The notes: generated from the letters alone by a model not told the origin. Shown: positions 3,727 to 64,000, numbered from the stretch's first letter. The stretch: 64,000 bases of DNA from Raillietiella orientalis (GCA_036172245.1 JAYWIR010000076.1:186001-250000), one strand, 5' to 3'. Numbers and translations: made by a program.

Positions 3727-4040
3727 CAGGGAGGTGTGTCCAAAAGCAGCAGTGCGGGTGGTTTTCTAGAGAAACCTTAAAAAACGCGCCCGGCTGCTGC
3801 AGAAAAAGTTGGCGGCGAAAGCTTCCGCGAAGGCTGTGCCACCCGCGTCCAAGACTCAGGCCGCACCCGAGACCCCGGCGAACAACGCCGAAAAAGTCGA
3901 GGGAATCGGCCAGGAGCCTGGGTGGCAAGTGGCAACAGCCAAAAAATCGAAGAAAGAGGGAAGGTTAGAGAAGGAAATCGCCTATCAACAGAAGAAGAAA
4001 GAGTAGGGTAGCGCGATCATCAAAGAGTGCAGCGTCGGCG
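3727..4040 (+). mobile_element. Family G ORF1 fragment (G0); host of element H
   Basis: NNAEKVEGIGQEPGWQVATAKKSKK matches the G ORF1 at 37.3 kb and the one at 43.9-44.2 kb. It ends at the 3' end of H. Confidence 0.8.
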
Positions 4041-4245
4041 TTTATTACCCGGTTGCGCCGGGACATTTTTTAACAAAATCAAATCATCTGGGAACTAAGT
4101 TCCCAGGTAAGGGAAAGAGAAGATGGGGAGGAGGGTTCCCGACACGCAGGCCGGGCACACAGAGAGTTCGAAACGGGTGGGAGGGAACAATAAATAAATA
4201 AATAGGAAGGGAGGGCGGGAATAGGGGTCTGCAGATTCGCCGTTC

Positions 4246-6386
4246 CTAATCTCAGAACCGGTGGTGAATGCCGCCGATCTCCGTCCTCACTTCCGCTGCA
4301 AGATTTGGCTACCTGGCAGCCATTTGCAGGTTGAAGGCTGCAGTATCGGAGACCGATGTTGGTATCGCTTGCGTCTGCAATACGTGGCAGGCCCTGACAG
4401 TGGCGCGGACGCAGCAAATGATGGCGACGACCGCTCCTAGAGAAACGCCGGCACGCGTGAAGCAGCGGCGCATCCAATCCTTTGCGGTGTGTCGGGGATG
4501 CAAGAGCGCTGAAGACAGCCTCCGCCACATTTCCTGAAGGGCACCGCATTCAAATAGCAAATGCGGAAGCGATTCCACTGCTCCGCATCTTCCACAGTTC
4601 GGGGACGCAACTTCCCCGGAAACCAGGTGCGCGAGCCAGTTGCAGTACAATCCCCAATGCACCAGCAGAAAAGCGTCCTGTTTTTAACGAAGAAGGAAGA
4701 CAGTCGTGTCCAAGCACGCAGAAGGGACCACAAGTTCTCCAGCGGGCACCCCGAAGTGCTCGCTTCACCGGAAAAGTCCCTTGGCACGAAGGCGAGGCGT
4801 GGCAGCGTCTGTTACCTCGCAAGTCCTCCAGCCGCTCAGCAGTCGGGTTACGCCTGCGACTTCGCAGGCCACCTCCCACCTCGCCGGCAGGTCACTGTCG
4901 TCTCGCACCATCAGTGCACACAGTGCTTCGGCGAGTGGCGTAGCGGCTAGGCGTGTCCACTGGTCCTCGTCTTCCAGCACCTCCCCCACTGGACAGTATG
5001 GGGAAAGGTTCACGCAACGGAGTTCCAAACGGGACACATTCTGTTGCGCTGCCCAGGACGATAAGGCTTCCTGCCTCCAGGCGTTGAGTTTCGTTGGCCG
5101 GCAGGAAATCCACCAATGCTTTTCCAGAACCGAAGCAAGCTGCTTCAGAGGGAAGCCGGATCCTTTTAAAACGCGCTCCGTGCGCAGGTGCAACGAACGC
5201 AGTCCGTCGCCATCCGTGCAGCGCCGCAGCACCAGCCGCGCTGGAGCACACCAGGGAGTAGTATAGAGCTGGGCACAAAGTGCCAGCATGCGGAAGTGCA
5301 CTAGCATTCCGATCCGCTCCAGCGTCAGGATGAACAATTTTGCATCAAGCCGAGAAGCCGTCAAGTCTTTGAAGCGGAACGTGGAGCTCGCTTGTCCCCA
5401 GAAGGCGTTTCGCAACAGGCGTTGCGCCCGGCGCTTAGCCGAGTAGGGAGGGGGACAAACAAAAAAGAGGAAAGAAACAAACGCTTCTGCTAGACAGAAG
5501 GCGCCCAAGAGAACGCCAGGGTACTTCAAGCACCTGCCCGTGGAGATCCCCAGGCGGATTCAGGAGGACTGCCCCTCCCACGTAGAGCCAACCGGTACAA
5601 CGGCTGATTTCGTCCTGTTGACGCTCAGGCCCGCTCCCCGACGAATGAGCTCGAAGAAGTCCTCGAGCCTAACGCCGGGGTGGACATGGGCAGCAGCAGG
5701 AGAAGGTCGTCAGCATAGGCGGCCACGGCCGGTGTTCCCGGGCAGGAGCTCGGAAGGTTGGCCAGCGTCAGCCTGTACGCCCTCAGCACCAACTCAAAGA
5801 AGATGCTGAAGAGCAGGGATATTAAGCTGTCTCCCTGCCTGATACCCCACCGTATGGGAATGCCGTACACGTGGCTTTCGCTGAAAGAGATACAGCATAA
5901 CGCGTGGCGCCAGCAGGAGCGCAAGTAGGCGATGAGGTGCGTCGGGAGGCCTAGGCGTCCCAGAAGCTCCAGAAGGAGGTCCTGGTTCACGCTGTCGAAC
6001 GCTTTTCAGAGATCGACGCCGACCGCTAAGGCCATCGGCGTTACATCGTGCCCTGAACACCGCCGCTTACCTTTGGCAGCGGCGATTTCGGCTGCCTGTC
6101 TCTGCTGCACCACACGCTGCTGCAACTCGAACCATGTTCGCGCGAAGAAGAGATTCGCGTCCATGGACCGACCCGGAACAGCATACGTCTGCTCCGGACT
6201 TACCAAGGACTCTGCGATTCTCTCCAGGCCCGCGACCCATAGCTTGAAGAACAACTTGACGTCCGAATTCACCAAGGTGATCGGACGCCAGTTGCTTAGG
6301 TGGCGCAAATGACTGCCTTTCGGCAGGAGCCGCACCTTTGCTGAGCGGAAAAAAGCGGGAACATCTCCCGTCTCACGCATCAGCGA
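4246..6386 (-). pseudogene. H ORF2, RT and C-terminal part (frameshifted)
   Basis: NWRPITLVNSDVK, GIRQGDSL, AYADDLLL, CGRCGAVESLPHLLFEC. Confidence 0.9.
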
Positions 6387-6524
6387 CGGTCGCGTATGGA
6401 CGTGCTTTTGCGTCGCTTCGCGGTAGATTGGCTTTTGTGTGTTTTTGTTCTGCTGTGCTTCTGTGCTGCAATGGGAGCAAAGAAGAACATCAGCCGCAAG
6501 AAGTGAACGCCACCTGCTCCTGAG

Positions 6525-8550
6525 ATGGCTGCTCCGGCTGCTAGCAAGGAGCCTCTGTCCTCGCCGACGGCGAGGACTTTCGCCAAGGTCGCTGCCCTCG
6601 CGGCTACGACGGGACCTTCGCCCGACAGCCCTGAGCTTCAGGCGTATGTAGCAAATGGCTACACGCCTACACTCAGGTATAAGGTAAGTGTCCTTATGCC
6701 TGAGCGGGTTGGGCGCGAGTTTGGCCAGGAACTCCAACGGATTGGAGTTCAAAAAGGCCAACTGGAGTCCATCATGCCCACGAGGGGGTGCGGCTACTGG
6801 GAGGTATCCAGTAAGGAAGCTCTCCTTACGCAGCGTTTGCTGCACACGCCGCTGCTCATTCGTGGGCAGGAAATACTCCCTGTCACGACGGACTAGTCGT
6901 TCGTTGTCCGGCTCAGTGGAGTGTGTAAGGGCCTTTCGGAACGGCAGGTCGTGGAGGCCCTTGAAAAATTCGCTACCGTCCACGCGCTTTGGAGGCTGCC
7001 AAACCCTGCTGAAGGGTTCGAAGACCACCACAGCGGGCTCGCGCAAGTGCGAGTGACGATGACGGATCGCCGTGCAATGCCCACGCGACTGCAGGTGGAT
7101 GGAATGACCGTCCGCCTGTGGTTTGCCGGGCAAACGCGTGTATGCGCGGAATGCGGGCAGGAGGGTCACCGCCTCACGAAATGTCCCTCGGCCGCTTACG
7201 GTTACTGACACGAGCACGGGCACACTAAAGGAATGTGCCCGGAGCTCCTTTTAAAAAACGAAAAGTGCAGGAACGAATCGCGTTCCGCATCGCGGAATAA
7301 TCGCCGCGATTCGAGAGAAAGAAACAGCAAAGCTTCGAAAAGCGTTGCGAAAACCGCGACCACGCACGTGCAGAAAAGTGTTTCTCGCCCCCACAAAGAA
7401 GGGGTGAAAAACACAAAAAAACTCGTCGCGGCAAAGCCTCCGGCTATCGACCCGAAGGAAGCTCGCGAAGAATGCGACCTTTCTACGAGACCTCGCAGCC
7501 AATTGTTGAATGCAGGAGACATTCTGCCGAAGGTCAAAGAGCCTCGTACTGTCGGCATCACGACCGCGAAGCCTCGTACCAAGGCCTCGACGAGCGGCGC
7601 GGAATGCGGTCGTTCGCCCGATACGGGAAAAATGCGCCCTCGGGCAAAGAACACCGCGCCGTCTGAAGCTACCACGGCCAAGGTGCCCCAGGCGCCGAGT
7701 GCCGCGAAGAAACAGCCGGAAAACCCGCAGTCCTCGCGCGCGGACGCAGCGCCTACTGCGGCCAAGGAAGGAACTGCTAGGGCGAGCACAACCGCTACAG
7801 CAGTGCCGCCAACCGTCGCAAAGGCAACGCGCGAACCCTCCGATCTGGAAGAGGCAGCGCCTCTCGCGATCGCTAAAAGAGTTGCTTACGCCTGCGTGGA
7901 GGCAGCACTCCAACAGGCAGCCAAGGAAACGCCTCTTACATCCGTGGAAGCAGCGCCATCTCAGGATGGCAAAGATAACTGCGATGCGAAGGAAGACGGC
8001 TGGATGCAGGTGAGAAAGGAAATTGAAAAAAACCTTCAAGTTCCTCGCAAATCTGTGTGAAGGTGAGTGGACGCAAGAAACCCGCGAAACCATTCCCCAA
8101 AAAGATTGCGATCCCTTCCTCCTTTGCAGTCGTCCTCTCGCGGATGGAGCGGGAAGCTGCTGCTGCGGCTGAAAAAACGAAAGTCCCAGCCGCAGTTGCA
8201 GAAAGCGCTAGGAAACAGGGAGCGAACAATTCCCCTAATTCCGGGAAACAGCAGCAGCGCCTGGCAAGCCCTCGACTGTCGGATCCTAATCCAGAGTCCG
8301 ACAGAAAGAGCACACAGCGCGGCAACCGCCCGAAACCGCGCAATCGCCTCTTGAAGACCCGCAAGCGCGTGGTTGCCGAGGAGCAACTGTTGCTGGGGAG
8401 CAAAGAGGAGGATAAGGACCACACCTCTGAGCTACCGCAAAAAGCAGTGCGGCTTCGAATGGAGATGTCCAGTCTCCGAGATCGACCGCTCTGTCTCGTG
8501 ACCACTCTCCGGACAAGGCGAGAATTCTGTGCTCACCTTTCAAGCCTTAA
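6525..8550 (+). pseudogene. A ORF1 (gag-like, CCHC knuckles), with stops and frameshifts
   Basis: GYTPTLRYKVS motif, CAECGQEGHRLTKC, basic low-complexity tail. Confidence 0.85.
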
Positions 8551-11500
8551 TGCAGGAAGTCGCCTTTTTTCGTCGATTCAGCGTAGCCTGTTGGAACGTC
8601 AATGGGCTGCGCAGGGACGGAAAGAGGCGCGACGTGTCAGACACCCTGCGACATTTCGATTTGGCGATCCTTCAGGAGATGCATTACATCTCCGATGCGG
8701 AGGTTGCGGAAATCGAACAGCGCGCGGGTGGCACCCTGTACTGGCAAGAAGGTTCTGCACAATCGTGCGGAGTTTGTTTTCTCGTCAATAGTAGGATGGC
8801 GGGAGCGGTGCGCAGCGTTCGATTCGACCAGGAAGGGCGAATGGGCAAACTTGTACTCGATTCAATCGACCTCGTCGTAACGAACGTCTACGTGCCGAGC
8901 GGCTTTCATCTGCGTGTCGAAAGAATCGAGTTCTTTGACGTGCTGGAAAGCCAATGGCTCAGAAACTTTGAAGCCAGAGTGCCGCATCTCGTCGCAGGGT
9001 ACTTCAACGTCCACCTGCTCTCCAACGAGACGCGGTCCCTGGCGGAACGGTCGCGGGTGGAAGAGGCATGCGCGTCGGTGCACGCGCGTAACTTGGAAGC
9101 CGGCGAGCCTGGACTGGAAAGGTGCGTGGATCACCTCTATCTCGATAAACACCTACTCTCGCGAGTGGGAAGGAGAGGCAGGGTGTCGTCCACGTTATCG
9201 GACCATGATAGGCTGGAGTTCGAGCTACTCCTGTCGGGCAAGGGACCTCCAAACAATGTCTGGAGGATGCCAGCGGATTGCTGAGTCATCCGGAAGCGGC
9301 GGAGCATCTTCGTTAGTTCCTTCGCGGCTTTGCCATCCGGGAACTCGCAGACTGGGACCATCTTAAAAGATCGGTTCGCGAGTTTTGCGACCGGTTGCCT
9401 CTGCACCTGCTATCACGCGGCTTCAGGGAAGGCGTGGCCAATAGCAGAGCATTTCTGCAGGCGCGCACCTTCTGGAGACGTGCGGAAGTCCGGCAACTCG
9501 CAGAGTACAAGGCGAGGGCCGAGCGCCAGGTCTGGCAGTATGGAGCGGCTATTTTGCTCGACGACCAAGGCCGGGAATGCACGGCTCCTGCCGAAGTGCG
9601 GCGAGCACTAAAGCGCCACTTCTCCTTGCTCTACGCTAATTCCCCGACGGATAGAGTCCTCTCCGAACTACTTTTGCCGCGGGCTGCACATGGCATCGGC
9701 GAGGAGGAACGCGCTCGTCTCGACGAGCCCTTAACGGCGGAAGAAGTTTCTTCCGCCATCGCAGGACTCAAGAGACGGAAGACGCCAGGTGAGGACGGAC
9801 TGTCCGCAGAGTTCTATCAGAGCTTCGCGGCGGAACTGGCCCCACTGGTGCTTAGAATCTCGACGCTGATGAGGGTGACGGGCGATGTCCCTTCTTCCTT
9901 CCGCTCAGCGAGGGTGCGTTTCCTTCCGAAAGGAGGGGATCTGCGCCAACTCAACAACTTTCGTCCGATCACAGTAGTGAATACGGACGTCAAGTTGTTT
10001 CCGAAGCTGTGGGTCACGCGCTTAGGGGAAGTCGCGGAGTCCGTGGTAAGCCCGCAGCAGTCTTACGCTGTACTGGGTAGATCCATGGATGCAAACATTC
10101 TTTTCGCGCGCACCTGGTGGCAGCTTTAAGAGCTCGTTGCGGCGGATAGCCGAACAGCGGCAAGACTTTCTGCCGACTGCGTGCGCCAGTGCGGACGGAC
10201 GGGAGAAAGGCCGGGAGCCTTGGCACTAGCAGTAGATTTGCACAAAGCATTCGACTGCGGAAACCAGGAACTCATCTTCGAGCTCCTGGAGCGTCATGGG
10301 CTTCCGAATCATCTTCTCCTGTACTTGCGCTTTTGCTGGCGCCACGCGATTATCAACTTGTATTTCAGTGGCTCCCGCGTGTACGGAGTGGCCGTGCACA
10401 GAGGCATCAGACAGGGGGACAGCTTAAGCCCGTTGCTCTTCAGCATCTACTTTGAGTTGGTGCTAAAAGCGTACAGGCTGACGCTGGCCGTCCTGCCCAG
10501 CGCCTCTCCGTGCACTCCGTCCGCGGCAGCATAGGCAGACGACCTTCTGCTTCTGTTGCCCATGTCCACTCCGCCGGACTCGTTCCAAGACTTCTTCGAG
10601 CTGATCCGTCGTGGAGCGGTCATGAGCGTTAACAGGGCGAAGTGCTTTGTCGTGCCGGTGCGTGCGTCGTAAGAGGGACAGGCCGACTGGATCCGCCTGG
10701 GGATTCCCACGGTCAGGTACTTCAAGTACCTTGGCGTACCGTTCGGCGAATTCTGCTCGTCTGAATCGTGGTCGGCCTGTCTTCCAAAGGCAGAGATGGC
10801 TCTAGGCCCGTTCCTGGAAGGCAAGTTCGTCTTGCCGGAAAGGGCGTGCATATGGAACACTTTTCTTGCTTCCCTCCTCCGCCCCTTATTTTTTGTTTGT
10901 CCGCCTCCCTATGTGGTTAAACTCCAAGCGCAGCGTCTCCTACGTAAGGTCTTGTGAGGCGCTGCACGATCCAGGGTTCGACTTAAAGATTTGGTAGCGC
11001 CATGCCAGCACGCAGGCCTGGGCATCCTCACCATCCAGAAGAATGGACTGCAAGTGCAGTTCCGGCTTCTATCCCTATGTGGGAAATTGTGGTCTAGTCA
11101 CTGGTGTGCTCCGGCTCGCCATATTCTCCAGCGATGTGTCGGCAGTGCAGGATTGCTTTCGTTGCTGCCGCGCAACCTTCGCCGGAGAACTGGATTTGGC
11201 TACCCACAGAGGCATTTGTCCTCGTTGCTGTTAGCCCGTTCCTGGATTTCGTGCCGCCCCTTTAATTGGAATGCTTGGTAGCAGGAAGCTCTGGAGCACT
11301 GGACGTCCACTTTGGATGTACGCGAAGAGCAACTGCGACCCTCACAGGGCCTCTTACGCCAACCGCTAGGAGTGATCCTACAGGACTGGTCGCTTTGGTC
11401 CCGGATAGTCGTCTCACCCATCGCCGCAGCGCTGTCTGCTCTTAGGGCAAACAACGACAGTAGCCAACCGGCAAAGTGGTAGTTCTTCTGCAGCATTGCA

Positions 11501-12110
11501 GGAGTGGGAAGACTGCTGAGCGGCTGCAGAACGAGCGTGTTGGTAGACGCTGCCACTACTCGTTACCTGGCAAAGTGGCTTTTTCGTTGGAGTGAGATTC
11601 TTGAATTACTCCCCGAAGATCTCGTGGTCTTTTCCTTGAGTGTGGACAGCTCCGTGTTCCCGCTTCAATGGAAACAGGATGTTCTTTTTTTTGTGCACTG
11701 GGGATTGCAGTGCAATAAGCGCAGAAACTTGGTTACAGTGATAGTCGTCTCCACGAACTGCCTCAGGTGCGGGGCGATAGAATCGCTTACGCGCCTTCTC
11801 CTTGAGTGTAGTGACTTTCGGGAGTTATGACGGAGACTTGCTTCGGCACTTCGTCGTCCTCAGGAGACTGCCACAGACCTGCTTCGACGCTTCTTCAGCA
11901 AAGACGGACTGGATAAAGGCGCTGTTATTGCAACAATCTCTTACATCCGCGCCATCGTGATCGCCCGCCGTAAACTAGAAGGAAGCTCACAGCGAACGGA
12001 CGCCGCCAGAATCGCGGCGAACCTTATGAAAGCTGCTGTCAGGTGGCCTCATCTGCCCAGAGAAGTCTCCAGGGAAGTCGCCATTGTCAAACAGCGCTTC
12101 TAGAAAGATT
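8550..12110 (+). pseudogene. A ORF2 (APE endonuclease + RT), disrupted
   Basis: CWNVNGL, LQEMH, TNVYVP, SDHD, KTPGEDGL, NFRPITVVN, GIRQGDSLSP, A*ADDL, CLRCGAIE. Confidence 0.92.
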
Positions 12111-12638
12111 AGGAACGTTTACTACCAAAAATCCCTGACCCCACTCTTCACTGTTTTTTTGTTTGTTCTCTTATGTTTTGTTTATTTTGTATCCTTCTCC
12201 CTCCGTTCCTTTCTTTTGGGAGGCAACCTGCGTGCCGGTGATCTTTCTGAACTGAACTTTCTGTATGGGCGTTCCTTGTGTCTTGAAAAGATGAATTTGC
12301 CTTGAAGATTGTATTCGTTTTTACAAATAAACGTTCCGACGCAACCGGGTTCGATACGCATCAGCGAGGAAAGGCTTAGCACCAGGGGGACGAGCTTTGC
12401 CGCGAAGCACTGAAAGAACTCCGCGGGCAGGCCATCCTCCCCAGGCGCCTTACGCCTCTTCAGGCCCGGTATGGTGTAAGATACTTCTTCCGCCGTGAAG
12501 AGCAAATCCAATGTGACGCGTTCCTCCTCGTCGATAGCAGGGTTACCCGTCGGCAGAAGCAGCTTTAAGAGACTTGGTTCCGTCGGATTCCTAGCATACA
12601 ACGAGTAGTAGAAGCGCCTTCGGAGGCGGCAACGGCGG

Positions 12639-15600
12639 ACGCAATTGTTGTGCGCTCCGTGGAAAGGGAGTTTTTCTTTCCTGGTGTTTCGTGTGTGTTT
12701 CGCGGCCTTTGACAGGCAGAAATGCCTGTGGACGCCGCAGTTTCAGGTGAGGGAGGCGGGAAGACCGCGTCTCCCAAGCCAAAGGAGGTAGGATCACGCC
12801 CCACCACTACTTCTAAAGCCGCCACTACAGCGAGGACCTGGAGCGCGGTGGCAGCGGCGGAAACGCCCGATGTCGCCGCCGAAATACAATCTTCCATCCA
12901 GGAGGGCTACAATCCGGCCCTCCTGTACAAGGTAGGGAATTTATATTCCCCGTTAAGGACCCAAAAGTTCGGCAATGCCATCAAAAAGATAGGCATTGCC
13001 GAACATGAAATTCTTTGCCTGTCAATACGGAGCGGAGGGCAGTTGGCAGAGCTCATCTGCAAGGATGCAGCTCTTACCCTCAGGATGTTCTGCACGACCG
13101 TACAATTTGAGGGCAGGAATTTACTCTCACACACGGTGGACCACCCCATTGTGGTTCACCTAACTGGCACAACAGTGCGGATGGATGAGAACGCCATCCG
13201 CGCTTAAATGGAAAAATTCGCAAGCCTTTTTGCGATGTGGAGAAAGCCCAACACCTTCGGAGTGGATGGTACATTTAGTGGGCGAGTAGGCGCGCGCGTG
13301 ACGCTTCGAGAAAGCGTATAGCTTTCCCACAAGCTCCAGATTGGCGACGAGTTCGTCGACATTCGGTTTGTGGGGAAAACTAAATTTTGTGGAAATTGTA
13401 AGACGTTCGGGCATTTGAAAAAGCAGTGCCCGGACGCAGTTTGCCCAACGTGCGGCGCGAAGCGCCACACTAAAGTGGTGTGCCCGATAAACGTCGCTCC
13501 AACGCCGGAAATTCCGCAAAGAAAGGAATGGAAGGCAAAAATAGCAATAAACATTACAAAAGGGGATCAGACGTCGGCTCCGACAAAAGTCGCGCAGCAG
13601 CTCCCGGTACAGGAGCTCCCGGAAAAGACTGCCGACGAGGAAGGCTGGCTTCGTCCTTGACCTCTAGTTTGTGGGGAAGCCCTCTATCCTTCTTCACCGT
13701 CACACCCGCGGCGGCCTGCCCTCCGAAAAGGCTATCGTATCCATCAAAGATTGTGGCCTTTGGCCATAGCGCGTGTAATTCACCGTATTTTTTCAGCTGA
13801 TCACCAGCCGCATACCGCGTCATGCGGCTGGTGATCCCAGTCAGATGGACCACTACGGAGCGGTCCAACGTGAATGGCAGGATCTTGCGTCCGTCCACGT
13901 TCAGCAAGGTAGTAATCAAGCTTTGCGCAAAGGTGAGGTCCTTGCTGGCAACCTCTACGCACTGACCGCCTCTGAGCACGGATAGACCGTCAAGATCCTT
14001 CTCTAAAACGTTGGCGTTCTGCAGCACCTTAAAAAAAGCGCGTGCAGTTCGCTCGTCAAAGAGATTGCCTACCTGGTACACCAGGCTGGGCTTGCACCCA
14101 ATTGCCCGGAAGGCTGCCATCTCGGCCATGGCTTCCGCGCTAGGCGCGGCCACCATGGCGATCCAGCTCCTCGCCTTGGGCGGCAAGGGCGATTCCAAGG
14201 CGGACGCCCCTGATTCTGTAGGCTGTGGGGGTGGGCAAGCCTCCTCCACACCTAATACCATCGTGGTGCCTTCAGGCATCGCTGCCATCGGAAACCAACG
14301 ATGTTCCACAACAAAAAAAGCACAAAAAAAACCGCTTCCTGTCGACTTACTGGGGAGCGAAGGAAAAACACGTCCGCTCGAAACAGGTTTCGGCGACGGG
14401 CTGAGGAACGACCGGGCATACAGGACGCCCGTCTTTACTCTAGGACTTTCGACGTTCGACGCCTTGCGGAGTATAAAGCTGGGGCAGAGCGACAGACTTG
14501 TCAATGCCAGTCGGCCAGCTTGCTGGACGCCCAAGGCCAAGAATGCGAAGCTGCAACGAAAATAATCCGGATCCTGCGTGAATTTTACTCCTTCTTGTAC
14601 GAGCGTAGAACAACAGGGCGAGCCGTGGCGCAGCGCTTGCCATCTCAAGGCGCTCCCGCGCTAAAGGACGAGCAGAAACATCAACTGGAGGAACCTTTCT
14701 TAATAAAGGAGATCATCTCCGCCATAGGAAAGCTCAGAAAGAGGGAAGCACCAGGGAAGACGGTCTGCCCGCGGAGTTATATCAAGGCTTCGTGGCGGAG
14801 CTGGCCCTCCTGGTGCATCGGCTATGCATGCTGATCCGAGAACAAGGGGACGTCCCCAAATCGTTCCGGTCAGCTAGAGTACGTCTCTTGCCGAAAGGAA
14901 GAGACAATCTCAACGTAGGCAACTGGCGTCCTATCACAGTAGTGAATGCATATGCGAAGTTGCTTGCCAAGCTTTGGGCTCAGCGACTGGAACGTGTGGC
15001 GGAATCCGTGGTAAGTTCGGAGCAGACCTATGCTGTTCCAGGACGATCCATGTAGGCCAACACTTTCCTCGCCTGTACGTGGTGGCAGTTGCAACAAAAC
15101 GAAGACCAGGGAGGTCAAGAGAATCCTGGATTCTCCTCTGACCAGAGAAGGGAATCATTTTATGGAAGAGCCGCGCCCGGTGCTTTTGCGGTCGCAGTCG
15201 ATCTGCGTAAAGCTTCCGATTGCGTCGACCAAAAACTCCTTATGGAGCTCCTGGAACGCCTGGGATTTCCGGATGTCTTCCAAGCTTACCTGCGCTCCTG
15301 CTGGAGCTTGGCTCTAATAAACATCTCTTTTAGCGGCCAGCACGTGTACGGCGTGGCATAAGGCAGGGTGACAGTCTGAGGCCCTTGCTATTCAGCATCT
15401 ACTTCGATCTGGTGCTAAGGGCATACAGTGAGACTGTCACAACCCTGCCAAGCTCGTGTCCCGGCACGCCTGCCGTGTCGGCCTACGCCTACGACCTTCT
15501 GCTCCTGCTCCACGGGACTACCCCGGCGTCGGCGGTCCAAGATTTCTTTGAGTTGCTGAGCCGTGGGACGGGCCTCGAGGTGAACAGAGAGAAATCCACA

Positions 15601-17351
15601 ATCGTTCCTACATTACTACTGCTTTTTGAAAATACGGCGTGGGCCGGACGGTCGGACTGGATCCGCTTAGGGATGTTCACAGGCAGGTGCTCCGAGTACC
15701 TTGGCGTTCCGTAGGGGGAGTTCTGCGCTGCAGAAGCCTGGTCCGACCGTGTCCAAAAGGTGGAGTTGGCGATCGGCCAGTTCCGGAACGGCAAGTTTTA
15801 CTTGCAATAGCGGGCCACGGTGTGGAACGCGTTGGCGGCTTCCCTCCTTCGCTCCTTTCATTTTGTTTGCCCCGCCCCTCCCATCATACAGAGACGGATC
15901 AAAGCCCTCTTGTGGACTGCCCTTTGGGGCACAGCAAAGTCGCGTGTCCGACTGAAAGACTTCTGCGCTCCACGCAGGAATGGTGGCTTGGGCCTCCTTA
16001 CGTTATAGCGCATCCAACTACAAACAACACTTCGAGAGTTGGCCCTTGCGGCGAGATTATGGATGACGCCATGGTGCGATCCGGCAGGGCTCCTCGTCGG
16101 AAGAGCGACAGGCAGAGAAGGATTGTCCTCGATCCTCGTGGCCTACCAGCGAAGCCTCTCCAACTGTGGCACCCATTTGCGCCAGATGGTCGCCCTGATG
16201 AGGGAGAATACCTGGATCTTCTGCTTCCTTGCGAACTGCACTGCCTGGCTTCAGGAGTCAGCCTCCGCGTGGGCCAAGATCAACGGCACGTGCGAGGCGG
16301 AATACAACTGCCTACGACGAAGACCGTACGCTCGAAAGCCGCTGCAGGAGATTATCAACACGCCGCGGAAGTTTCTGTGAGCTGCTTTTAGCCCCCTTGC
16401 CCCCGTTCTGTCCTCCCTTAAAAACACTAGGAGCAGAAACGAGCGAGCATCGTGGGAAGTGTCCTGCCTTATCCGAGGCAGGAAAAAACTTTTAAAGGCG
16501 TGGACGACGCGAGAGCTCACGGACGCTGCCACCCCGAGCGTCCCGCCTCACGGACTTGCGCGCTGAGGAGTGCTGCTCGGAATACCTCCGGAAGAGGTGA
16601 AGTGGTCCCCATCGTGTTGGGATTGCGGCACACTTCCGTTGAAGTGGCAGGAAACTGCATTGCTATTTCTGCACTGGGGACTGTTAAGCAGAGCACGCCT
16701 GTGTCACTGGACACTGGGGAATGTGGATGCCCGCTGTGTCGAGTGAGGTCAAAGAGAAACCTTACCGCATCTCACCCTTGTGTGTGTCGCTCTGGAAATA
16801 CTCTGGAGTCGAATCGCCCCAATCCTCCATCTGCCAGTTAACGATCCTAAGGAAACTTACTGTCGCCTCTTTCTGCGTGACGGCCTGCGTTCCGCTGCGT
16901 CTGTAGCAGTACTCTGCTGCGTGCGCGGCATTGTGCAAAGGTGGCACGCCTGAAAAAGAGGCTCAAGATGCTGGGACGCCATCCACTGGACGACGAGCTC
17001 TTTGGAGACGGCGTCAAGGTGGCGTCTACCTTTCACAATAAAAACCGAACTTGACTGCATCCTCAACAGGATGCGGAGGACCGGACCAGGTGCACAGTGA
17101 CCCCTACTTTACCTCTCACCTCCCTATAGAAGAGTTGATCCTCTCCGTTCTTTCCTTTTTTTTTTTTGTTCTCCTTTTCTCCATCCCCAGCCCTTGTGGA
17201 GAGAACCTCGCCGGTCTATGGACCGAGTAGCGAGTACATTGTAGCGTGGGAGAACGCAGTGTTCCCCCACAGAAAACATATTTTAAAGACTTTATTATTT
17301 AATTTTTGTAACAAATTAGAATAATAAATGATTCGGCATATCCAGTTGAGA
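12639..17351 (+). mobile_element. Element B: ORF1 at 12722-13648 and 3' ORF2 at 14381-17100; interior replaced by inverted E1
   Basis: Imperfect TSD AACGGCGG (12631-12638) / AACGTCGG (17352-17359). ORF1 has GYNPALLYKVGNL and CGNCKTFGHLKKQC; RT has YAYD. Confidence 0.8.
13649..14380 (-). mobile_element. Family E 5' end/ORF1 fragment (E1)
   Basis: GCKPSLVYQVGNLFD...LPHKLEV; 5' motif GCGGACGTGTTT at 14377-14366; closely similar to 54748-55480. Confidence 0.85.
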
Positions 17352-28300: not shown

Positions 28301-28539
28301 CACAGCAGACTGTGATCCCTTCCCGTGCCTTCCAGATCTTGATTTTATATATTTCTCTTTTCTGTTTTATTTTTTGTTATGTCGTTGGCCTCTCTGCTGT
28401 CGTGGTTAACCGTAACGGAATACGATCCGGTGACCCGGCTGGCTTAATTTTGTATACCAGTGCGTGGCCGGTCCACCTGGTCAGCACCAACGTTTGTGTT
28501 ATTCGAAAGAATAAACGCACCGGCGCAACCGGGTGAAAA

Positions 28540-43320: not shown

Positions 43321-43344
43321 CGTCGAGGTTGTGGGACCATTCTT

Positions 43345-54747: not shown

Positions 54748-56767
54748 CGAGCGGACGTGTTTATCCTTCGCTCCCCAGTGAGTAGACAGGAAGCGGTTTT
54801 TTCTGTGCTGTTTTTGGTGTGGAACATCGTTGGTTTCCGATGGCAGAGATGCCTAAAGGCATTACGATGGAGGTAGGTGTAAGGGAGGCTTGCACACCCC
54901 CAAAGCCTACAGAATCAGAGGCGTCCGCCTTGGAATCGCCTTCGCCGCCCAAGGCGAGGAGCTGGAGCGCCATGGTGGCCGCGCCTAGCGCGGAAGCCAT
55001 GGCCGAGATGGCAGCCTAATGGGCAACTGGGTGCAAGCCCAGCCTGGTGTACCAGGTAGGCAATCTCTTTGACGGGCGTACTGCACGCGCTTTTTCGAAG
55101 GCGCTGCAGAACGTCAGCGTTTTAGAGAAGGATCTTGACGGTCTATCCGTGTTCAGCGGGGGTCAGCGCGTAGAGGTTGTCAGCAAGGACATCACCGTTG
55201 CGCAAAGCTTGATTACTACCCTGCTAAACGTGGACGGACGCAAGATCCTGCCATTCACGTTCGACCGCTCCGCAGTGGTCCATCTGACTGGGATCACCAG
55301 CCGCATGACGCGGTATGCGGTTGGTGATCAGCTGAAAAAATACGGCGAAGTACACGCGCTATGGCCAAAGGCCACAATCTTTGATGGCTACGATAGCCTT
55401 TTCGGAGGGCAGTCCGCCGCGCGTGTCACGGTGAAGAAGGATAGTGGGCTTCCCCACAAACAAGAGGTCAATGACGAAGTCGTAGACCTCTAGTACGTGG
55501 GAAAACCCCAATATTCTGGCTACTGCAATGCAGTAGGACACCTTCGTAAGAGGTGCCCTAACATTGTGTGCCACTTATGCGGAGAGAAGAGCCACGTGCG
55601 CAGCGTGTGCCCTAAACGCCCCACTCCGGTGCCACCTGCTGGAAAGAAAGCGCAGGCAAAACGCGGAAAATTGGTCAAAAGAGCAAAACGAGATACTGGC
55701 CGGCAACAGTCGCAAGCCCCCGTTCCTCCCACACTGGATCCGCTTCTTCGGAAGAAACACCTTCCGAAGAAGCGGGAGACCAGGACGGCTGGCAGCTGGT
55801 GATGGCCAGAAAAAAGAAAAAGGTGCCCCCCGCGGAACCCGCGAAAGCAGTGAAAAAGACAGCCGGCAAGGCAAAAAAACCTGGGCCGCGCTGCAATACC
55901 ATGCGGGAATGTATAGTGGCACTGGAACGCATAGCCGTTCCCGAGACTGCCACCCGGGGCGACTAGCCTTTCCTCGCCGTTTCCGCCGCGCCCTTGGTTC
56001 GCGAATGCGATCCCTCTGTTTACACAGAGGGTGAGCCGCGCGAAATAGTGAAGGTCGAAGCCGAGGATGCCGCGTTCGCGCAGACGGCGGAGAAGCTCGC
56101 GGCCACGCTGGCCGAGCGTGAGAACCCCTCGCGCAAGGCAGTGCGAAGGCCGGCTCAGCCTAAGAAGGCCCCCGAAGGTGAGATCGACCTGAGCCGGAAG
56201 TGCATCCTTCTCCTCGAAGGCAGCCCCCAGGAAGTCGGCACTTATTCCCACAAACCCAGGAGGCGCCTCCCGTCCACCAGCGAGGAGGAGAAGCAGGAAG
56301 GTAGCATGAGCGTGGGAAACCCGGAGGTAGAACTCCCACGCTCGGAAGCCGTCGAGCGGGCCACCTCCATGGAGGAAGGTTAGCAGGGGGCGAAATCCTC
56401 CCTGAAGTCGTCGAGCCTGAACAGGCCGCTTTCTTGGAGGAGGGCCAACAGCTAGGCGCGACCTCACCTGAGGGTGACCCTCTCGACGCGCCGTTACCCA
56501 TAGAGGAGGGGGACCAGGTGCACTCAGCTACTCACCCTCCGTCTCCACCTAGCGTGTCCCCTCAACAGGTGGCGGACGCCGCATCGCCATCTTTCCAGGA
56601 GTAACACCTAAGCTCACCCGTTGCCGTCGGATTCCCGCCGCCTGTTGCAACGTCAACGGGCTGCGTGACGACGGTAACAGGAGAAATACGGCCGACACCC
56701 TGCGTGAGCTCGACCTGGCTCTGCTGCAGGAAATCCACGTGATCACCGCGGCAGACGCCCAGGAGAT

Positions 56768-59700
56768 TTCTCACTCGGTCATGCCGGGGCGTTTATTCCA
56801 TATAACATAACCAAAAAAACCAATTATACAAAATAAAACAGTTGGGAACCAAACTCCCAACCGACGACTGAACAAGAATGAAGAGAATAGTGCTGGTACG
56901 CAGGCCAGGGTAACAGTTTTGCGAACGGTGTGGGGGAGCGGGGAACACAAAGAAACCAAAATAAAATAAAAAAAATGAATAAGAAGGACGGGATAAGGGT
57001 CTTTGGGATCGCTCTGGAAGACACGGGGATAAAAGCATAAGCACCGGAAATTTTAGCGAGCGAACGATGACGGGGTATGGGTGAGCGAGAGGTCGCAGGG
57101 GTCACCGGATTATGCCGTTCTCAAAGGTGTGTAAACCGGCGATGTATGCCGGTGATGTCTTCATTCACCTTGTCACGAAGATGAGACCACCTTGAAGTCT
57201 TCTCCATGAATAGAGCTGCAAGCAGGTGAGCCTCCCTCCGCTGCGCTGACAGTAAGCAGTTTGGCCACAGGGCCGGCGCTTGCCCAACGTATCGTTGATT
57301 CCGCTGCGGCTAAGTAGGACATCAAGTCCGAAACTGCCCGCAGCCGGAGGTGTGCTTCTTCTGCAAGAAACACGGACATGCCAAATGGAGCTGTCCGGAG
57401 TTTGCAAACTGCAGAAGGATTCGAGGTCTCTCTCCCGTAAGAGAGAGAAACACCAAGGAGGTGGAACAGGCTCCGAAGGCAGGATGGCCGAGGAAGGTGA
57501 AAGATGCCGTCCCGGTATCGGAAGACGGCTTCATACAGGTAATGAAGAAAGGAAAGAGGAGGATGCTCGTCAAGGAGCAAGAAGCTCTTCTTAGCCTGGA
57601 AGGTGAAGAGCAAGAAGGCGAGAAGATGGAGGTGGCGCAGGAAGGCGCGGAAGAAGAAATAGCCGAAGCCACTTGGTGTCGCAGGAGGCCCTGCAATCTA
57701 CTAACGAGCTGGCATCACTGGCTAATGAAGTCCTAGAGGTGCAGAGCGGTCCCCAACAAGAGAAAATCTTGCAGAAGTTCTGCAATGCACAGGAGAAGGT
57801 CAACCAGGCTGTGGAGGTCACCGAGCGCGAGAAGCTAGAGGAACAGCTTCTCGACGTAAAAGCGAACTTCTGCGCCGAGGTCGAGATAGAGACGCTATCT
57901 CGAAAACTGATCGGGTGGGCCGAACACTTGACGGAGGAGGCGGAAGTTACCAACCTCATCGGAACAGAGAGTGACGCCGGCAGCGAGAAGCCCGCTGCTT
58001 CTTCATTGTCTGGAAGAGCACGCTCTCTCAGACAGAAGAAGCTCAGGAAGGCCAAGAAATAGGTCTTCCTTTTTTATGGCCTCTTCACTATAGACCGCCA
58101 GAAGGCTGAACATCGCCTCCTGGAATGTAAACAGTGTGGTCGACCAGCGAAAAAGAAAAAGGACTGTGCGGACCATCGCACAAGACATAGCGTGCCTGCA
58201 GGAGACCCACAAGATGGGTCTCGAGATTAGTCAGCAAATGGAACGGCGACTCAACGGGCAGATGTTCTTAACGAAGGAGAACGCAACACGAAGGGTGTGG
58301 CGGTGCTAATAAAGAACCACTTAGCCCCCACTATTCTGGAAGTGTTCTGTCCTTAACCCGGACGAATCATCGGCGTGCGACTGGCCTGGTCCGCTACTGT
58401 TCACCTCATCCTGGTGAACGCGTACGGGCCGCACAGGCTGAAACATCGTAGTGCGGAGGCGCTGCATGCAGCACTCCGTGAAAAGCTTGCCCTTAAGGAC
58501 GTCGTGATTGTTGCTGGCGATCTCAACATATTGGATGTGATCACTCACTCCCTAGACGCCAGAGGAAGGACGGCGTATCGGCGGTTATCCGAAGAGTTCG
58601 GACTGGTGTGGCGAACTGGAAGTCACAAGCCGAGCGATCACGTCCTGCACAGCACCGAACTTGGGAATCGCATCTAGGGTTTTCGAGACATTATGACCAC
58701 GGTGTCCGATCAACCCCTGGTGCGGTTTTACTTCAGAACGGAGAATCCTCGGCAACGCAAGGCACCAGGGCGGCGCTCATCAGCATGCCCGCCTGGTTCG
58801 AAACCCATAACGGACATCAGGCTGTCCTAGAGACGATTCTGAAGGCAACAACAATCCGAAGAGTCGCCGACTGGGATAGCCTGAAACACAGGATACACCT
58901 GTTTGCAAACATTCGGTTCGGGAATAGGTGCTTCAAGCAGAAGGCGTACCGGTAGCTGAACATTCAAGATCGCTCACTCGCAAAGTACTTCGATCAGTAC
59001 GAGAGTCGGTACGACTTCAAGAACATAAAAGGGGAAGTCGGTGTGCTGGAGAAGAGAAATCTGGCAACAGATATCTTCTGCATCCAGTACGACGGTCAAA
59101 AGCAACAGTCGTCTGAGGACATCGTGGCTGCCTTTCACAGGCATTACACGAAACACTTCAGGCGACAACAGCTCTGTCGCTCTAGTCAACAGGCCTTTCT
59201 TAGCTACCTCGAGAAGAGGACCGACGATCTCCAGCGAAACAGATTGGAGGAGGAATTCTCCGAAAACGAGGTGAAGACTGCGTTTGGTCAACTGCGCAAG
59301 GACGTGGCAGCGGGCCCTGACAGCGTACCCATCACTCACTATCAGCGGTACCTGCATGCCTACCTGCGTTTGTTCCACCATTTGACCCTCTGCAAACGCG
59401 AAGAACGAAGACTTCCACAGTCTTTCTACAAGAGTCGGATGAGATTGTTGCTCAAAGGAGGCGACCTCACGCAGGTCGCTCAATGGAGGCCAATCTCGAT
59501 CCTGAACTCCGATGCCAAGTGGTTGGCGAAGATCTGGTCCAACCTCTTAGGCAAGGTCATGTCGAGGCTCATCTCTCCGGTACAAACGTGCGCAGTCCCT
59601 GGACGTCACATGTCGGACGATGTCAAGTGTGCCCAGGCCAGTGTCGGACTCGGCCGATACGTCGGCGAGAACCTGGCGCTAGTGTTCACTGACATGGAGA

Positions 59701-62700
59701 AGGCTTTAGACTCCATCGATTATGGGATGCTGCTGAAGGTTCTGGAGAAGCTAGGCCTTCCGGAACACTCCAGCAACTTCGTGAGCGTGGAACTCCAGAA
59801 CCAGTACTGCCGAATCAAAATCAACAACCAGGAGACGGCAGCAATCCGGATGGAACGGGGAGTTCGGCAGGGCGATTCGCTAATTCCGATGCTGTTCGTC
59901 ATCTACATGGAGGCGTTGTCGTCCTTTATCAAGAAGAGCGGACGACTGCAAGGCATAACAATTGATAGCCAGCGTCTTACCCATTTGGCATACGCTCATG
60001 ATCTACTCTTCTTTATCGAGGGAGAGAGCAATCAACGAGCGTTTCTGGATGTGGTAGACCTGATGGATCAAGGCCAGGGTCAAAAGATGAACGCCCAGAA
60101 AAGCCAGCTCTTGCCCGTTGGAATCCTCGATCTCTACGCCCTAGCGGGGAGAGCATTCCGAACGGTGGATAAGGCCAAGTACCTGAATGTCTGCATTGGC
60201 GACGTCTTACCGTCGAAGCTATTGTGGACCGAGATCCTAGAGAAAACGGCCAAGGAAGCAGCCAAGTACACCCGAACGGTGCTTAAAATGAAGCGAAAGG
60301 CCAGCATATAAACGGAGTACTCCTTCCGAAAGTGCTCTTCGGGGCGGCCATCGCGATGATGAACAAGGACACCACGAGGGATTTCGACAAGCTGCAGAGA
60401 AAAACACTGTGGGGCCACTATCGCCCAAGAGTCCGTCTAAAACTTCTGTGTCGTCCCAGGGAAGAAGGCGGTTCCGGGATGAAGTCGCTTGCACACTCCA
60501 TAGAAATCATGGATACGCGACACATCCTGGACATTGCCACTCACTGGGATGACTGGCCGTATGCCACGCACAGGGCCTACGCGTTGTTGTTGAACAACTC
60601 GAAAGGCCTGATGACTGCGCTGCTAGGCCGAGCAGGCGGATGGAAAAAAATCGTCCCAACCTGGACGAAGAAACAACGGCTCGTGCGAAAGTACAAAATC
60701 AAGATCGTGCCGAGAAGTAGGGAACTCTGACAGGACGAGTCCATCCTGGTGATCGCTTGGATGCTTCCTGTCCCGCTAAACACGAGAAGGTGGATCCACC
60801 AGCGGTCCAGAGTTACCCTTGAGCGAATCCAGAAGTGGAAACGAGGAGAGTACCTACATCACCCTCGTATACTTAGGTATATAGAGATGATGTTAGGAAG
60901 GTTTACCCACATGACTCGCGAAGTGTGGTTCAACCACAACGTCTTTGCGTGGTCAAGGGTAACCAAAACAAACCTCCGAAGACTAATTCAAGAAGAAGAC
61001 AGTGATATTAGTGCCCTCCAGGAAGCCGCTGATCGCTACGGGAGCTACCGGATCAACCTGTTAGCGATTGGCTCGACGCTCTGTAGGAGTGATCTTCCGC
61101 CGGGCACCCAGGATGACCTCCTGATGTTTTATCATGGAGGAATCCAGAGTGGGTCCCGATTGCAGCACTACACCGGAAGAAGGGAAGATCGAGACTGCAC
61201 AGCATGTGGAGACATCGACACGAGACTTCACGTCTTGACGTGTTCCACATTGCTGCATGACTGGCTGATCCTGAAAAGGATCATCGGTCTCACCACCAGG
61301 TCCGTAATGGAGATCCTCGCCGGGATGTTTCAGGGGGATGGTAATGTTCCCTGTTACAATCCCATGGTGAGGACTACCATCGCCCTCTTCATCACCGCCA
61401 TACTTTTGCGGTGGTGGAAAATGAGGAAAGCCAGAAGAGCCGCACCACCGATGGAGATCCTACAAGGGCTCTTGAAGAGGGAAATCGGCATTAGAAACTG
61501 TGGGAAAATCGAAGCCTGGACGTACCGATTCATCCTGAAGAGGATAGAAGACAACGCCCGGGACCAAACAGTAGGAAACCCACCATGAGTGCAGAACTTG
61601 TGAGAACCCAAGGACTTCATAGTGGTAAAAAAAGTGCTAATGGTATGGATGAGATTGTAGTGTGAATGTTTTTATAGAAAAATTTTAGAAAAATAAATTG
61701 ACGTCACCCCTCGTGGGACTTGGGGAAAACTGCCGAGTCGGCGATGGGGCCACTGCATGCAGCGTGCTTTTGCTCGTCGCGACGCTGCTTTTTACGGCTT
61801 TCGTAGCCTTTGCAGAGGGGACTGCGCTGCACTGGGGCTGTCCGGAACTCGGAAGGGACAAAGGAACGGGGCTAAAACTCTTCGTGCTATTGCGATCTTT
61901 TTGTTTTTCTACCTTTCCCTTCAGGGTGTTACGGAGATTTCCTGGTTCCTGGCTCGGAGAGTTGCCTGCGAGTTCTGCAGAGAGGGAAGGCACGGCACGC
62001 GTCAAACCCTCGGGCCCCTTTTTAATTGGCTTCCCCGCCGTGACTTTCCACTTTCGGGGCGTTGCGGGCGGGGATGCTTTCTTTTCATCCGCGGATCGCT
62101 CGTGGTTTTTTGCGAGTTTTTGCGGACGACGTTTTTTATTTGCCGCTGCGGCTTTTCGTGCAGTGGTCTCTTGAACCCGACGAATTTCTGCTGCGGCTCT
62201 TTTTCTTGCAAGTTCCGGGCACTTTTTGATTTCGTGCCCGGAATCTTTGCAATAGCGGCAACTTGGAGAAGGGCACACTTTAATTCGGTGCCCATCCTTG
62301 CCGCACTGCTCGCACGCGCGAGTCTGGCCTATGAACCACAGGTGAACGACCGTGCCGTTCACCTGCAGCTGCTCAGGCACTACACGCCTATTCGCGAAGG
62401 TGATCCGCGCGGAAACTTGTCCGATGTGGACAGAGGAGAAATCCTTCAAAGGGTTCGGCGTCCTCCAGAGGGCGTGCACGGTGGAGAACTTCGCCAGCAC
62501 ACTTACGACATCGCGGTCGGAGATTTCCGGTTCGATGTCGCACAATTGAACGACAAAAGAGTCGTCCATCGCGGTAGGTAGGACTTCCTTGCCATTGATG
62601 GTCAACGGAGTACGGAGAAGGCGCTGCACAAGTGCTGCGTTCTTGCACCGAATCTTCGTATATTCCATCCTGCCAGCAGGCATTATGGCAAGGAGTTCCT

Positions 62701-63095
62701 CCTCGAGAACGCCGATCCGGACGAGCTCATCATTGAGCTCACGACCGATTCTCCCGTTAAGGGGTCAACTGACCTTATAACGGAGTGCAGGCATGTATCC
62801 TGATGACACATATGCCTGGAACTCCGAATCGCAGGGTTCTGGTTTTTGGGAGGTAACCGCGGCGTAACTCCTCACCGGGGGCGAGGAAACCATTACGGAG
62901 GATGCGGCCGCTTCAAGTGCAGCTGAAGTGCATCCAGTGGCTTGCTCCTCCACACTATCCTGTGTACTGGCCATGTTGCACCATGCTACTTGGCAGATTG
63001 CACAGGAATACACAAGTGCTAGCAAAAACGCAGGCACAAAGTTGCCCGATCGTTGGCGCGGATAGACGCGGAAACACGTCTGCACTGTACGTGCG
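56768..63095 (-). mobile_element. Element D2: 3' end (56768-57251) and 5' end (61731-63095); interior replaced by X
   Basis: CAGGAGAT at 56760-56767 and 63096-63103; both ends closely match D1. Confidence 0.9.
57252..61730 (+). mobile_element. Divergent L1/Tx1-type element X: partial ORF1 and ORF2 at 58076-61588, disrupted
   Basis: CFFCKKHGHAKWSC; ASWNVNS, LQETH, AGDLN; QWRPISILNSDAK, GVRQGDSL, AYAHDL; CTACGDIDTRLHVLTC; AATAAA + CCCC..GGGG end. Confidence 0.9.
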
Positions 63096-63407
63096 CAGGA
63101 GATGGAGACGATCGCGGGTGGTCGGTTGTATTGGCGATGCGGCCTCCGCAACACCTGCGGGGTCGCGTTCTTCGTGAAGCCAGCGATAGACGCTGCCGTG
63201 AAGGGCGTGCGCTTCGATGACGACGGTCGGATCGGTCAGCTGATTCTCAGCTGGTCCGACTCGATCGACCTAATCGTCACAAACGTGTATGGCCATAGCG
63301 GCAAACAGGGGTACCGCGACCGCACCAGGCTGCTGGAAACCCTGAAACGCGACTGGCTGGCGGATACCAAAGTGCGAAAGGCTCACCTGATAGCGGAGAT
63401 TTCAATC

Positions 63408-64000
63408 GAGTGCGGACGTGTTTTTCTTCGCTCTCGTCTCCGTGCTTTCATCCGCTTCATCTTGGCGTCGTACATTTTGACGACGATGTCGACCCAACTT
63501 GAAGCTACTGAAGTTGGAGGAACAGCATCCGGATCTGCAATCGCGGAACCGACGGCCGCCTCCACTTCGTGTTGCTCGCCAATGGCGAGAAGTTTTGTTG
63601 ACGTTGCTGCCGCGGCAGCCCTCAAAGGGGTACCACCCAACAAGACGGAGGTGCAGGCCTACGTAGCCCAGGGCTACAATCCTGCACTCCGCAACCAGGT
63701 CAGTGGATTTGTTTCTGTTCGCGACGGTAATTAGTTGAACGATGAACTGACCCGTGTCGGCGTGCGGGAGGAAGACCTACTGGCCATTATGCCCGTCAAA
63801 AGTTTGGGATATTTCAAAGTGCGCTGCTAAGACGCGGCTGTTGTGCAACGCTTGCTGCGCACTCCTTTGTCCATCCGTGGTAAGAAGGTCTTCCCGTCTA
63901 TCATGGATGAGTCGTTCATGAGGGTGCTTTACGGCATCTAACCGGAAGCTTCCGACCGCGAATTGAGGACTGCATTAGCGAAATTCGCCACGGTCCATGC
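63408..64000 (+). mobile_element. 5' end/ORF1 of a D/F-type element (F2), runs off the window
   Basis: GCGGACGTGTTT at 63412; EVQAYVAQGYNPALRNQVSG is D-like; begins right after the host GA(T)TTCAAT (DFN). Confidence 0.8.

Follow-up and report, generated by a model that had tools for sequence, protein, structure and literature searches.

L1-type retrotransposons that lie inside one another raise the question whether an element chooses its place in a relative by sequence, or whether copies merely pile up in one region. We addressed this question for a stretch of 64,000 nucleotides from Raillietiella orientalis (GCA_036172245.1 JAYWIR010000076.1:186001-250000), called the window throughout, with positions counted from its first letter. 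An initial annotation of this DNA had proposed a community of L1/Tx1 families, each specialised on a conserved motif in the open reading frame (ORF) of a relative. The window displays nested elements, target-site duplications (TSDs), independent re-use of insertion sites and a duplication of part of the array. Hits by at least one lineage at exactly the same spot in the endonuclease genes of two relatives hint at sequence-guided targeting rather than mere piling-up. Our preferred reading, to which we assign a probability of roughly 0.55, is that the locus is a Zepp-like island of L1-superfamily elements from at least ten diverged lineages, in which at least the D family, and probably the lineages R2 and E, choose their sites by sequence.

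Positions 3728-64000 form a mosaic of L1-like elements without long terminal repeats (non-LTR) that carry an APE endonuclease and a reverse transcriptase (RT), as seen from tblastn with the D and R2 proteins and from self-blastn. Elements make up ~94% of the window. The island block has a GC content of ~0.52-0.59, and AT-richer DNA (0.39-0.47 GC) is found at 1-3727 and ~32-35.6 kb. Among the 74 ORFs of at least 150 amino acids (aa) in the window, 11 gave Pfam matches to Exo_endo_phos and/or RVT_1. Both domains are held by a single 763-aa frame of lineage R2 (44748-47036), with the APE domain N-terminal and the RT after it. In the PDB, a comparison that covers solved structures only, the top relative of the RT was human L1 ORF2p (E = 3.4e-41), while R2 proteins scored 3.7e-15 or weaker. 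Judged by domain order, the PDB match and the Cys-His motifs, the elements belong to the L1 superfamily (L1/Tx1 group).

Amino-acid identities over shared segments (RT 50-68%, APE 36-62%, ORF1 24-73%) separate at least ten lineages: D/D', A, H, K, C, R2, G/G2, B/B'/J, M, E and F, plus the distant X. Same-family pairs lie above these ranges, with 94% for D/D' and 87% for E and an E fragment. The lineages may be grouped loosely into a clade I (D, A, H, K), a clade II (R2, C, probably E and G) and a clade III (B, the fragment at 35605, probably M). Full-length 5' ends were observed for 11 elements (A, B, C, D, D', E, K, G2, M, F and R2), and clear 5' truncations for two (G and J).

The nesting could be followed base by base. 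Three plus-strand insertions, A, B and C, divide the minus-strand element H into four collinear pieces. A is bounded by the TSD ACGCATCAGCGA with 12/12 matching positions and B by AACGGCGGACGC/AACGTCGGCCGC (10/12), and a GGAGAT duplication occurs both at D in C and at D' in E. In local translations the host frame resumes across A, C, D and D'. At the B site the reading frame of H is offset by one base between the two sides. In run X1, a contig connects 12630 and 17352 through one additional G, which restores the H frame across B; we take this contig to be an empty B site in another H-type copy. For this comparison the contigs of run X1 were mapped to 12300-31000, where 242 were placed, 20 of them at ≥99% identity; the run contains 6% of the flank's words. 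The TSDs and resumed frames for A, B, C, D and D' confirm the nesting that the initial annotation had described for H, A, B, C and D; host frames resume across A, C, D and D', joined by B once the G is restored.

The annotation had also placed H in G and J in H, and F, E, G and X in other relatives. Here one junction each was found, and the other side was not seen. A single junction is visible for H:G, J:H, F:E, E:B', G2:fragment and M:C' (a colon marks a junction), and resumption of the host on the far side of the single-junction cases (H in G ORF1, J in H ORF1, F, E, G2 and X) was not seen within the window. Likewise, no TSD partner copies were found in the window for K, R2, J and H. An array of this kind would result if successive target-primed reverse transcription placed mostly full-length elements into older copies, leaving TSDs of 6-12 bp, and if later rearrangements followed, namely a 4.3-kb inverted segmental duplication and deletions. 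The 3' end of K abuts the 5' end of R2 head to tail (43137-43142) without host sequence or TSD, and G2 is not resumed after K, an arrangement that is not accounted for by simple nesting.

Run X1 carries these families at identities up to ≥99%, with the highest summed depth over D. Among the X1 matches listed are a D variant without 943 bp (joint 19527 to 20471) and a variant of the B 3' untranslated region (UTR) without 184 bp. A short X1 contig joins 17604 to 12632 and may stem from an H copy in which a B-type 5' end occupies the site of C.

The case for site choice by sequence is carried by D and D'. Both copies lie at the same base and antisense in the endonuclease ORFs of C and E, between the codons (T/Q)E(I/M) and E(R/T)I and ~10 codons past an LLQEIHVI motif. 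The two inserts are identical at 445/480 and 1282/1352 positions (92.7-94.8%), while the adjoining hosts C and E agree at only 99/130, 174/279 and 180/289 positions (62-76%); the right-hand host segment takes in 13 nt of D and the 8-nt CAGGAGAT repeat, which if anything inflates that host identity. The identity level changes exactly at both junctions, and the ORF1 of D' has a stop that is absent from D. We considered two other origins for this pair. A duplicated composite predicts equal divergence of host and insert, which is not the case, and gene conversion would need to stop exactly at the insert boundaries, which does not fit. The comparison thus supports two independent insertions of the D family at one and the same nucleotide in the endonuclease ORF of two divergent relatives. 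For one a-priori pair in an element of 5951 bp, coincidence of base and orientation has a chance of ~8e-5. Held against what defines a sequence-specific long interspersed nuclear element (LINE), both D-family copies (2/2) occupy the same base in different hosts, in one pair only. Taken together, sequence-guided re-use of this site by D appears well supported.

The D target, CAGGAGAT:CGA, and the adjacent stretch coding for LLQEIHVI are conserved in C, in E and in the unoccupied R2, and the clade-I elements A and K differ at this place (GAAAT). Such conservation is compatible with specificity without proving it. A search with the junction peptide that runs from the N-terminus of the C endonuclease into the antisense 3' end of D (93 aa) gave no match.

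A second coincidence involves two different lineages. The 3' end of R2 is followed by (GCAT)TGCCGAAACCTG in host M, and the 5' end of E is preceded by TCGCCGACACCTG in host B'. Both flanks map to one ORF2 position, where the codons read PGFGN in M, PGVGD in B' and, correspondingly, PRGFGE in D; the two junctions lie within 16 bp of each other. R2 and E share no blastn match between their ORF1 regions, and their ORF1 proteins are 42% identical. Since R2 keeps its 763-aa open frame, an ancient and by now decayed duplication does not account for the pair. For 14 independent events, simulation gave a P of 0.024 for two or more pairs that coincide to within 16 bp with matching orientation, under a generous null that treats all hosts as one coordinate system. 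The alignments support one ORF2 site in B/M-type hosts that is used by both R2 and E, and sequence-guided re-use of this site is probable.

Other recurrences have to be set aside. Five recurrent junction pairs were found, and three of them (E:B, B:H and H:C) lie inside a single inverted duplication of 4.3 kb, 13649-17957 versus 55479-51167, with 88% identity over 4332 columns (blastn). The duplication spans four pieces and three junctions: an E-type 5' end, B from its RT to the 3' end, a fragment of H and the 5' part of C. Its identity per 100 bp is even (0.84-0.98) and lower only in the AT-rich 3' UTR of B. In addition, one nucleotide of a G-run is missing from both B and B' (GGGG to GGG), which turns APGEDGLP into APGKT and shifts the frame. 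The two stretches are best read as one segmental duplication of an already dead composite. Because uniform divergence and a shared frameshift point to one duplication, these three junctions count as no evidence for targeting. The earlier statement that three sites recur therefore changes in content: there are five recurrent pairs, two of them (D/D' and R2/E) independent and three the product of one duplication.

The elements appear to follow a common plan, with an ORF1 that holds an RRM-like domain and two CCHC knuckles, and an ORF2 with APE, RT and a C-terminal CCHC. D is the most complete copy. Its ORF1 is open over 636 aa, with the RRM-like domain N-terminal and the knuckles (CX2CX4HX4C, by regular expression) at aa 223 and 241. 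Its ORF2 comprises 1201 codons with 3 internal stops and carries near its C-terminus, at aa 1085, the CX2CX10HX4C motif CLRCGEIESFSHLLLDC (also by regular expression). In Pfam, zf-CCHC matched only with E = 0.0018, below the family cut-off.

The 3' ends share a motif, AATAAAYGNNCCGGNNNNNCCGGGTG, which is present with at most one mismatch at the ends of D, D', C, J, K and R2 and with two mismatches each in A and H; B and B' have degenerate versions. It occurs 8 times in the window compared with 0 in 100 shuffles. A tail of 3-5 nt (AGAA, AAAA, ATAA and the like) follows in all eight ends, and poly(A) in none. In the fold of the motif a 5-bp stem closes a variable 5-nt loop; this stem is kept in 6/8 copies. 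Covariation was seen in 0/5 pairs of the stem; such evidence is absent because the stem hardly varies. The conserved stem-loop and its short tail would stand in for poly(A). A loose start motif, G(A)GCGGACGTGTTTTTC...CGCTC, is common to the full-length 5' ends of A (6387), C (17608), K (37666), E (54753) and F (63400), and suggests a conserved 5' terminus or promoter across lineages.

How far, then, does site choice extend? A first argument of the initial annotation was that nearly every element end abuts the ORF of a related element. This is true for 19 of 22 observed ends (86%, tallied by hand from the maps and junctions). However, 92% of the full-length D is coding and ~94% of the window is element sequence, so that ORF abutment is not above chance. 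Insertions are antisense in 10 cases and sense in 4, which is not significant (p = 0.18). Rfam and tRNA scans of the window found nothing; hence no RNA-gene target is involved.

Several observations weigh against site choice by sequence, even in the restricted form that we prefer. Across the 14 events there are 12 different sites, located in ORF1, APE, linker and RT. Within clade I, A, D, H and K each sit at a site of their own, such that the choice is not rigid across the group. The window holds only one independent same-family pair, D/D', and the intact D target of R2 is unoccupied. For R2 and E a 3' end is compared with a 5' end, and the identity of the nick is bounded only to ≤16 bp. A long common motif was not seen at the five reconstructed targets, which share only S:A at the nick. 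The junctions K/R2, G2/K and X/D' have no TSDs and involve deletions or rearrangements. A metagenome scan with the 3' motif gave 15 loci, none of which (0/15) was related to the window by blastn or tblastn; we rejected these loci as chance matches.

If sites are chosen by sequence, D, and probably R2/E, would re-use one exact position in a conserved coding motif of another lineage, antisense. Recognition may be achieved by the endonuclease or ribonucleoprotein of the element, and an alternative route would be annealing of read-through 3' RNA to homologous host copies.

The most far-reaching alternative is a full network of mutual targeting, in which the endonuclease of each lineage is fixed on one conserved motif in the ORF of another, so that the island becomes a self-sustaining web of site-specific parasites of parasites. 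The two independent re-uses (D/D' and R2/E) would be expected under it, as would the 11 full-length 5' ends and the 10/14 antisense insertions, although the latter bias is not significant. By our tally hosts belong mostly to another clade: clade I inserted into II in 4/5 cases, II-like into III in 3/4 and III into I or II in 3/3. Three further junctions would recur if the 4.3-kb composite were no duplication, but its shared inactivating 1-nt deletion and uniform divergence make one duplication the best reading. The 12 distinct sites for 14 events, the four sites of A, D, H and K, and a same-family replication of n = 1 also speak against a network. The proposal that each family is specialised on a motif in a relative's ORF thus keeps the re-use by D and the site shared by R2 and E, and loses its generality: one motif per family rests on n = 1 plus one cross-family coincidence, since the window contains a single same-family pair. 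We treat the multi-family network of specialists as a hypothesis and consider its full form unlikely. Overall the anatomy given by the earlier reading was largely right; composition and the segmental duplication leave it with less statistical weight than claimed. Slightly more doubtful is a variant in which a guild of a dozen L1-type lineages recognises motifs in a roughly cyclic manner, I into II, II into III, and III into I or II. If true, the members of the guild would generate, inactivate and re-use each other as safe harbours, in an island that amounts to a closed ecosystem.

At the other extreme, the elements may accumulate by region only, as centrophilic, heterochromatin-seeking or subtelomeric LINEs would do, with the recurrences due to chance or rearrangement. 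This accords with the ORF abutment, which matches composition (86% observed versus 92% coding), with the mostly unique sites and with a degenerate TTAGG tract within the island. Such LINE clusters are also known, as Zepp/ZeppL (excerpts of PMC8226300, PMC3446292 and PMC9940879) and as Celine with its unique TSDs (excerpt of PMC11288735). Regional accumulation would, however, leave the identical base of D and D' in divergent hosts to a pair chance of ~8e-5 and would require a second coincidence for R2/E, which makes it an improbable account. Weaker still is homology-guided homing, where read-through host RNA 3' of the element anneals to other host copies such that the same site is hit again, a role that downstream target sequence plays in R1-type elements: it would suit re-used sites in conserved coding motifs of multicopy hosts, nicks that share no long motif across families and 3' ends with a tail of only 3-5 nt instead of poly(A), but the D/D' flanks agree over no more than 10 nt past GGGTG before they diverge, with no transduced donor flank visible.

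Table 1. Elements and other features along the window (coordinates in the whole window), followed by the insertion sites in host elements.
Feature	Position	Strand	Description
G	3728..4041	+	5'-truncated G/R2-type ORF1 C-terminal fragment; adjoins H 3' end; 80% identical to 37140-37457 and 70% to 43933-44252 (blastn)
H	4042..30710	-	Old clade-I element in pieces 4042-6386, 12356-12642, 17352-17607 and 28540-30710, covering RT aa 201-671, 119-204, 7-115, then APE + ORF1 aa 189-266 (tblastn); split by A, B, C; 5' part cut by J; 3' motif 4046-4071
A	6387..12355	+	Full-length clade-I, antisense in H RT aa 201-204; TSD ACGCATCAGCGA at 6375-6386 / 12356-12367
B unit	12643..17351	+	In H RT ~aa 110; 12-bp TSD (10/12); B 5' part 12643-13648, inverted E-type ORF1 fragment 13649-14376, B RT to 3' end 14377-17351
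C	17608..28539	+	Full-length clade-II, antisense in H APE-RT linker (~aa 28, RT numbering); TSD ACGAGC; carries D; 3' motif 28510-28535
D	19498..25448	-	Full-length clade-I, 5951 bp, antisense in C endonuclease ORF ~aa 64; TSD GGAGAT 19492-19497 / 25451-25456
J	30711..32000	-	5'-truncated B-type 3' part; 3' end adjoins H ORF1 ~aa 188; right boundary approximate; 3' motif 30715-30740; 31931-31714 aligns with 16392-16609 at 71% (blastn)
Decayed RT remnant and TTAGG tract	32001..35598	+	44% GC; RT 33138-33821; degenerate (TTAGG)n 35404-35598
B-type RT fragment	35605..36297	-	aa 283-521; G2 5' end adjoins
G2	36300..37665	+	5' UTR and ORF1 of G/R2-type element; interrupted by K; 36565-37661 vs 43348-44444 71.6% (blastn)
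K	37666..43141	+	E-type ORF1 N-terminus, clade-I ORF2; 3' motif 43112-43137; 5' boundary good to ~5 bp
R2	43142..48626	+	Near full-length clade-II; 3' end antisense in M ORF2 'PGFG' site; 3' motif 48597-48622
M	48627..51160	-	5' two-thirds of B-related element (ORF1, APE, linker start); 3' side cut by R2; 5' end in C' ORF1 ~aa 86
Inverted segmental duplicate of 13649-17957	51167..55479	-	C' 5' part, H' fragment, B', first 727 bp of E
E	54753..64000	+	Full-length 5' end antisense in B' ORF2 'PG(F/V)G' site; carries D' and F; runs off window
D'	56768..63095	-	Second D-family copy, in E endonuclease; TSD (CA)GGAGAT 56760-56767 / 63096-63103
X	57252..61728	+	Distant L1-like element inside D', replacing ~4.1 kb of its interior; no TSD seen
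F	63400..64000	+	5' end and ORF1 start, D-related (ORF1 63% identical to D), in E endonuclease ORF ~aa 163; start good to ~10 bp
Insertion sites			ORF1 ~aa 86, ~188; two sites 200 bp apart in G-type ORF1 tail; APE ~aa 64 (x2), ~163
Insertion sites, continued			Linker ~aa 28, ~50 (x2); RT ~aa 110, ~203, ~283; X in D'

Some members of the array are of unusual composition. The N-terminal domain of the K ORF1 is E-type (73% amino-acid identity to E), and its ORF1 tail and ORF2 are of clade I (APE 62% to D); by these matches K would be either a recombinant lineage or two elements joined near 38600-38960. The RT of X is only 25-34% identical to the others, and X has a 3' end of its own, made up of AATAAA, a hairpin-like sequence and the tail AAAAC. 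In G2, a 42-bp tandem repeat (36350-36449, 2.4 copies, 68% matches) lies in the 5' region.

The AT-rich interval holds older material. Its decayed RT (33138-33821) is 29% identical to the D RT (tblastn) and has many stops, and residual DDLLLL..PM motifs resemble those of the GC-rich elements; old copies may thus drift towards the AT-rich background. CpG decay as the origin of the AT-rich parts was ruled out, with an observed/expected CpG ratio of 0.81-1.19 throughout and 0.81 in the remnant at 32001-35403. Between this remnant and the next L1 fragment lies the (TTAGG)n-like tract, which has a period of 5, 38.6 copies and 60% matches (TRF and motif search). It contains 9 of the 10 TTAGGTTAGG-like matches of the window, compared with a shuffle mean of 1.6. 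As TTAGG is the telomere repeat typical of arthropods, the host may be an arthropod, and the island could either lie near a telomere or include telomeric repeats at an interstitial position.

LINEs with a fixed insertion site have been described in rRNA, snRNA and tRNA genes, telomeric repeats, microsatellites and one DNA transposon. L1 clusters that nest in themselves (Zepp/ZeppL) have also been described, but to our knowledge their targeting rule has not. In a limited full-text literature search we found no description of LINE families homing to fixed positions in the coding sequence of other LINEs. The window alone provides one solid case (D) and one probable case (R2/E) and gives exact predicted targets. 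If the preferred reading is true, a LINE that homes to a fixed codon of a LINE endonuclease gene would provide a sequence-level mechanism for island growth. D-type homing would be an example of competition between transposon lineages, and a D-type APE, as an endonuclease evolved in nature for a defined GC-rich target, would be of interest for tools of targeted insertion.

Among known systems, 'stringent-type' LINEs such as eel UnaL2 are L2-clade elements that require a 3' stem-loop. The elements of the window resemble them in that a conserved 3'-terminal stem-loop, here with a putative role, and a very short tail replace a long poly(A); they differ in not belonging to the L2 clade and in that 0/5 pairs covary. 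The Tx1 group comprises site-specific LINEs such as Tx1L, which inserts in the DNA transposon Tx1D, and Keno, Kibi, Dewa and Mutsu, with targets in small nuclear RNA (snRNA) genes, microsatellites, and tRNA and 5S genes. Like these, the D family is an APE-bearing L1-group element found at one defined sequence of a multicopy target, even of a transposon. Unlike in the Tx1 group, the target is the coding sequence of related LINEs, and use in the window is loose (12 sites for 14 events).

Zepp carries poly(A). In contrast, the elements of the window end in a stem-loop, and they show two base-level site re-uses. By description, the likeness to Zepp/ZeppL lies in L1-group LINEs that form GC-rich nested islands of tens to hundreds of kb. 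According to excerpts of the reports on Zepp (Coccomyxa/'Chlorella' C-169) and ZeppL (Chlamydomonas and relatives), these L1 elements form one GC-rich nested cluster per chromosome, which is putatively centromeric and grows by insertion into existing copies (PMC8226300, PMC3446292, PMC9940879). Regional accumulation of a centrophilic, heterochromatin-seeking or subtelomeric kind has been proposed for ZeppL. In Zepp arrays, most copies are 3' ends that have lost their 5' part, and they belong to a single family or, per species, to one or two families (excerpt of PMC8226300). The window differs on both counts, with at least ten deeply diverged lineages (RT 50-68%) that are mostly full length, and with 11 full-length 5' ends versus two truncations in place of mostly truncated ends of one family. 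Celine of poplar is a centromere-seeking LINE that, in the excerpt of its description, inserts mostly in other retrotransposons with a unique TSD per copy and a targeting ascribed to chromatin (PMC11288735). As far as that excerpt goes, it shares with the window a LINE that is concentrated in one domain, inserted in retrotransposons and bounded by TSDs; unlike Celine, two sites are re-used here at base level, and the hosts are related LINEs rather than LTR elements. Compared with these systems, we would rate a Zepp-like island with a Tx1-like site choice, aimed at the ORFs of relatives, as a variation on known kinds.

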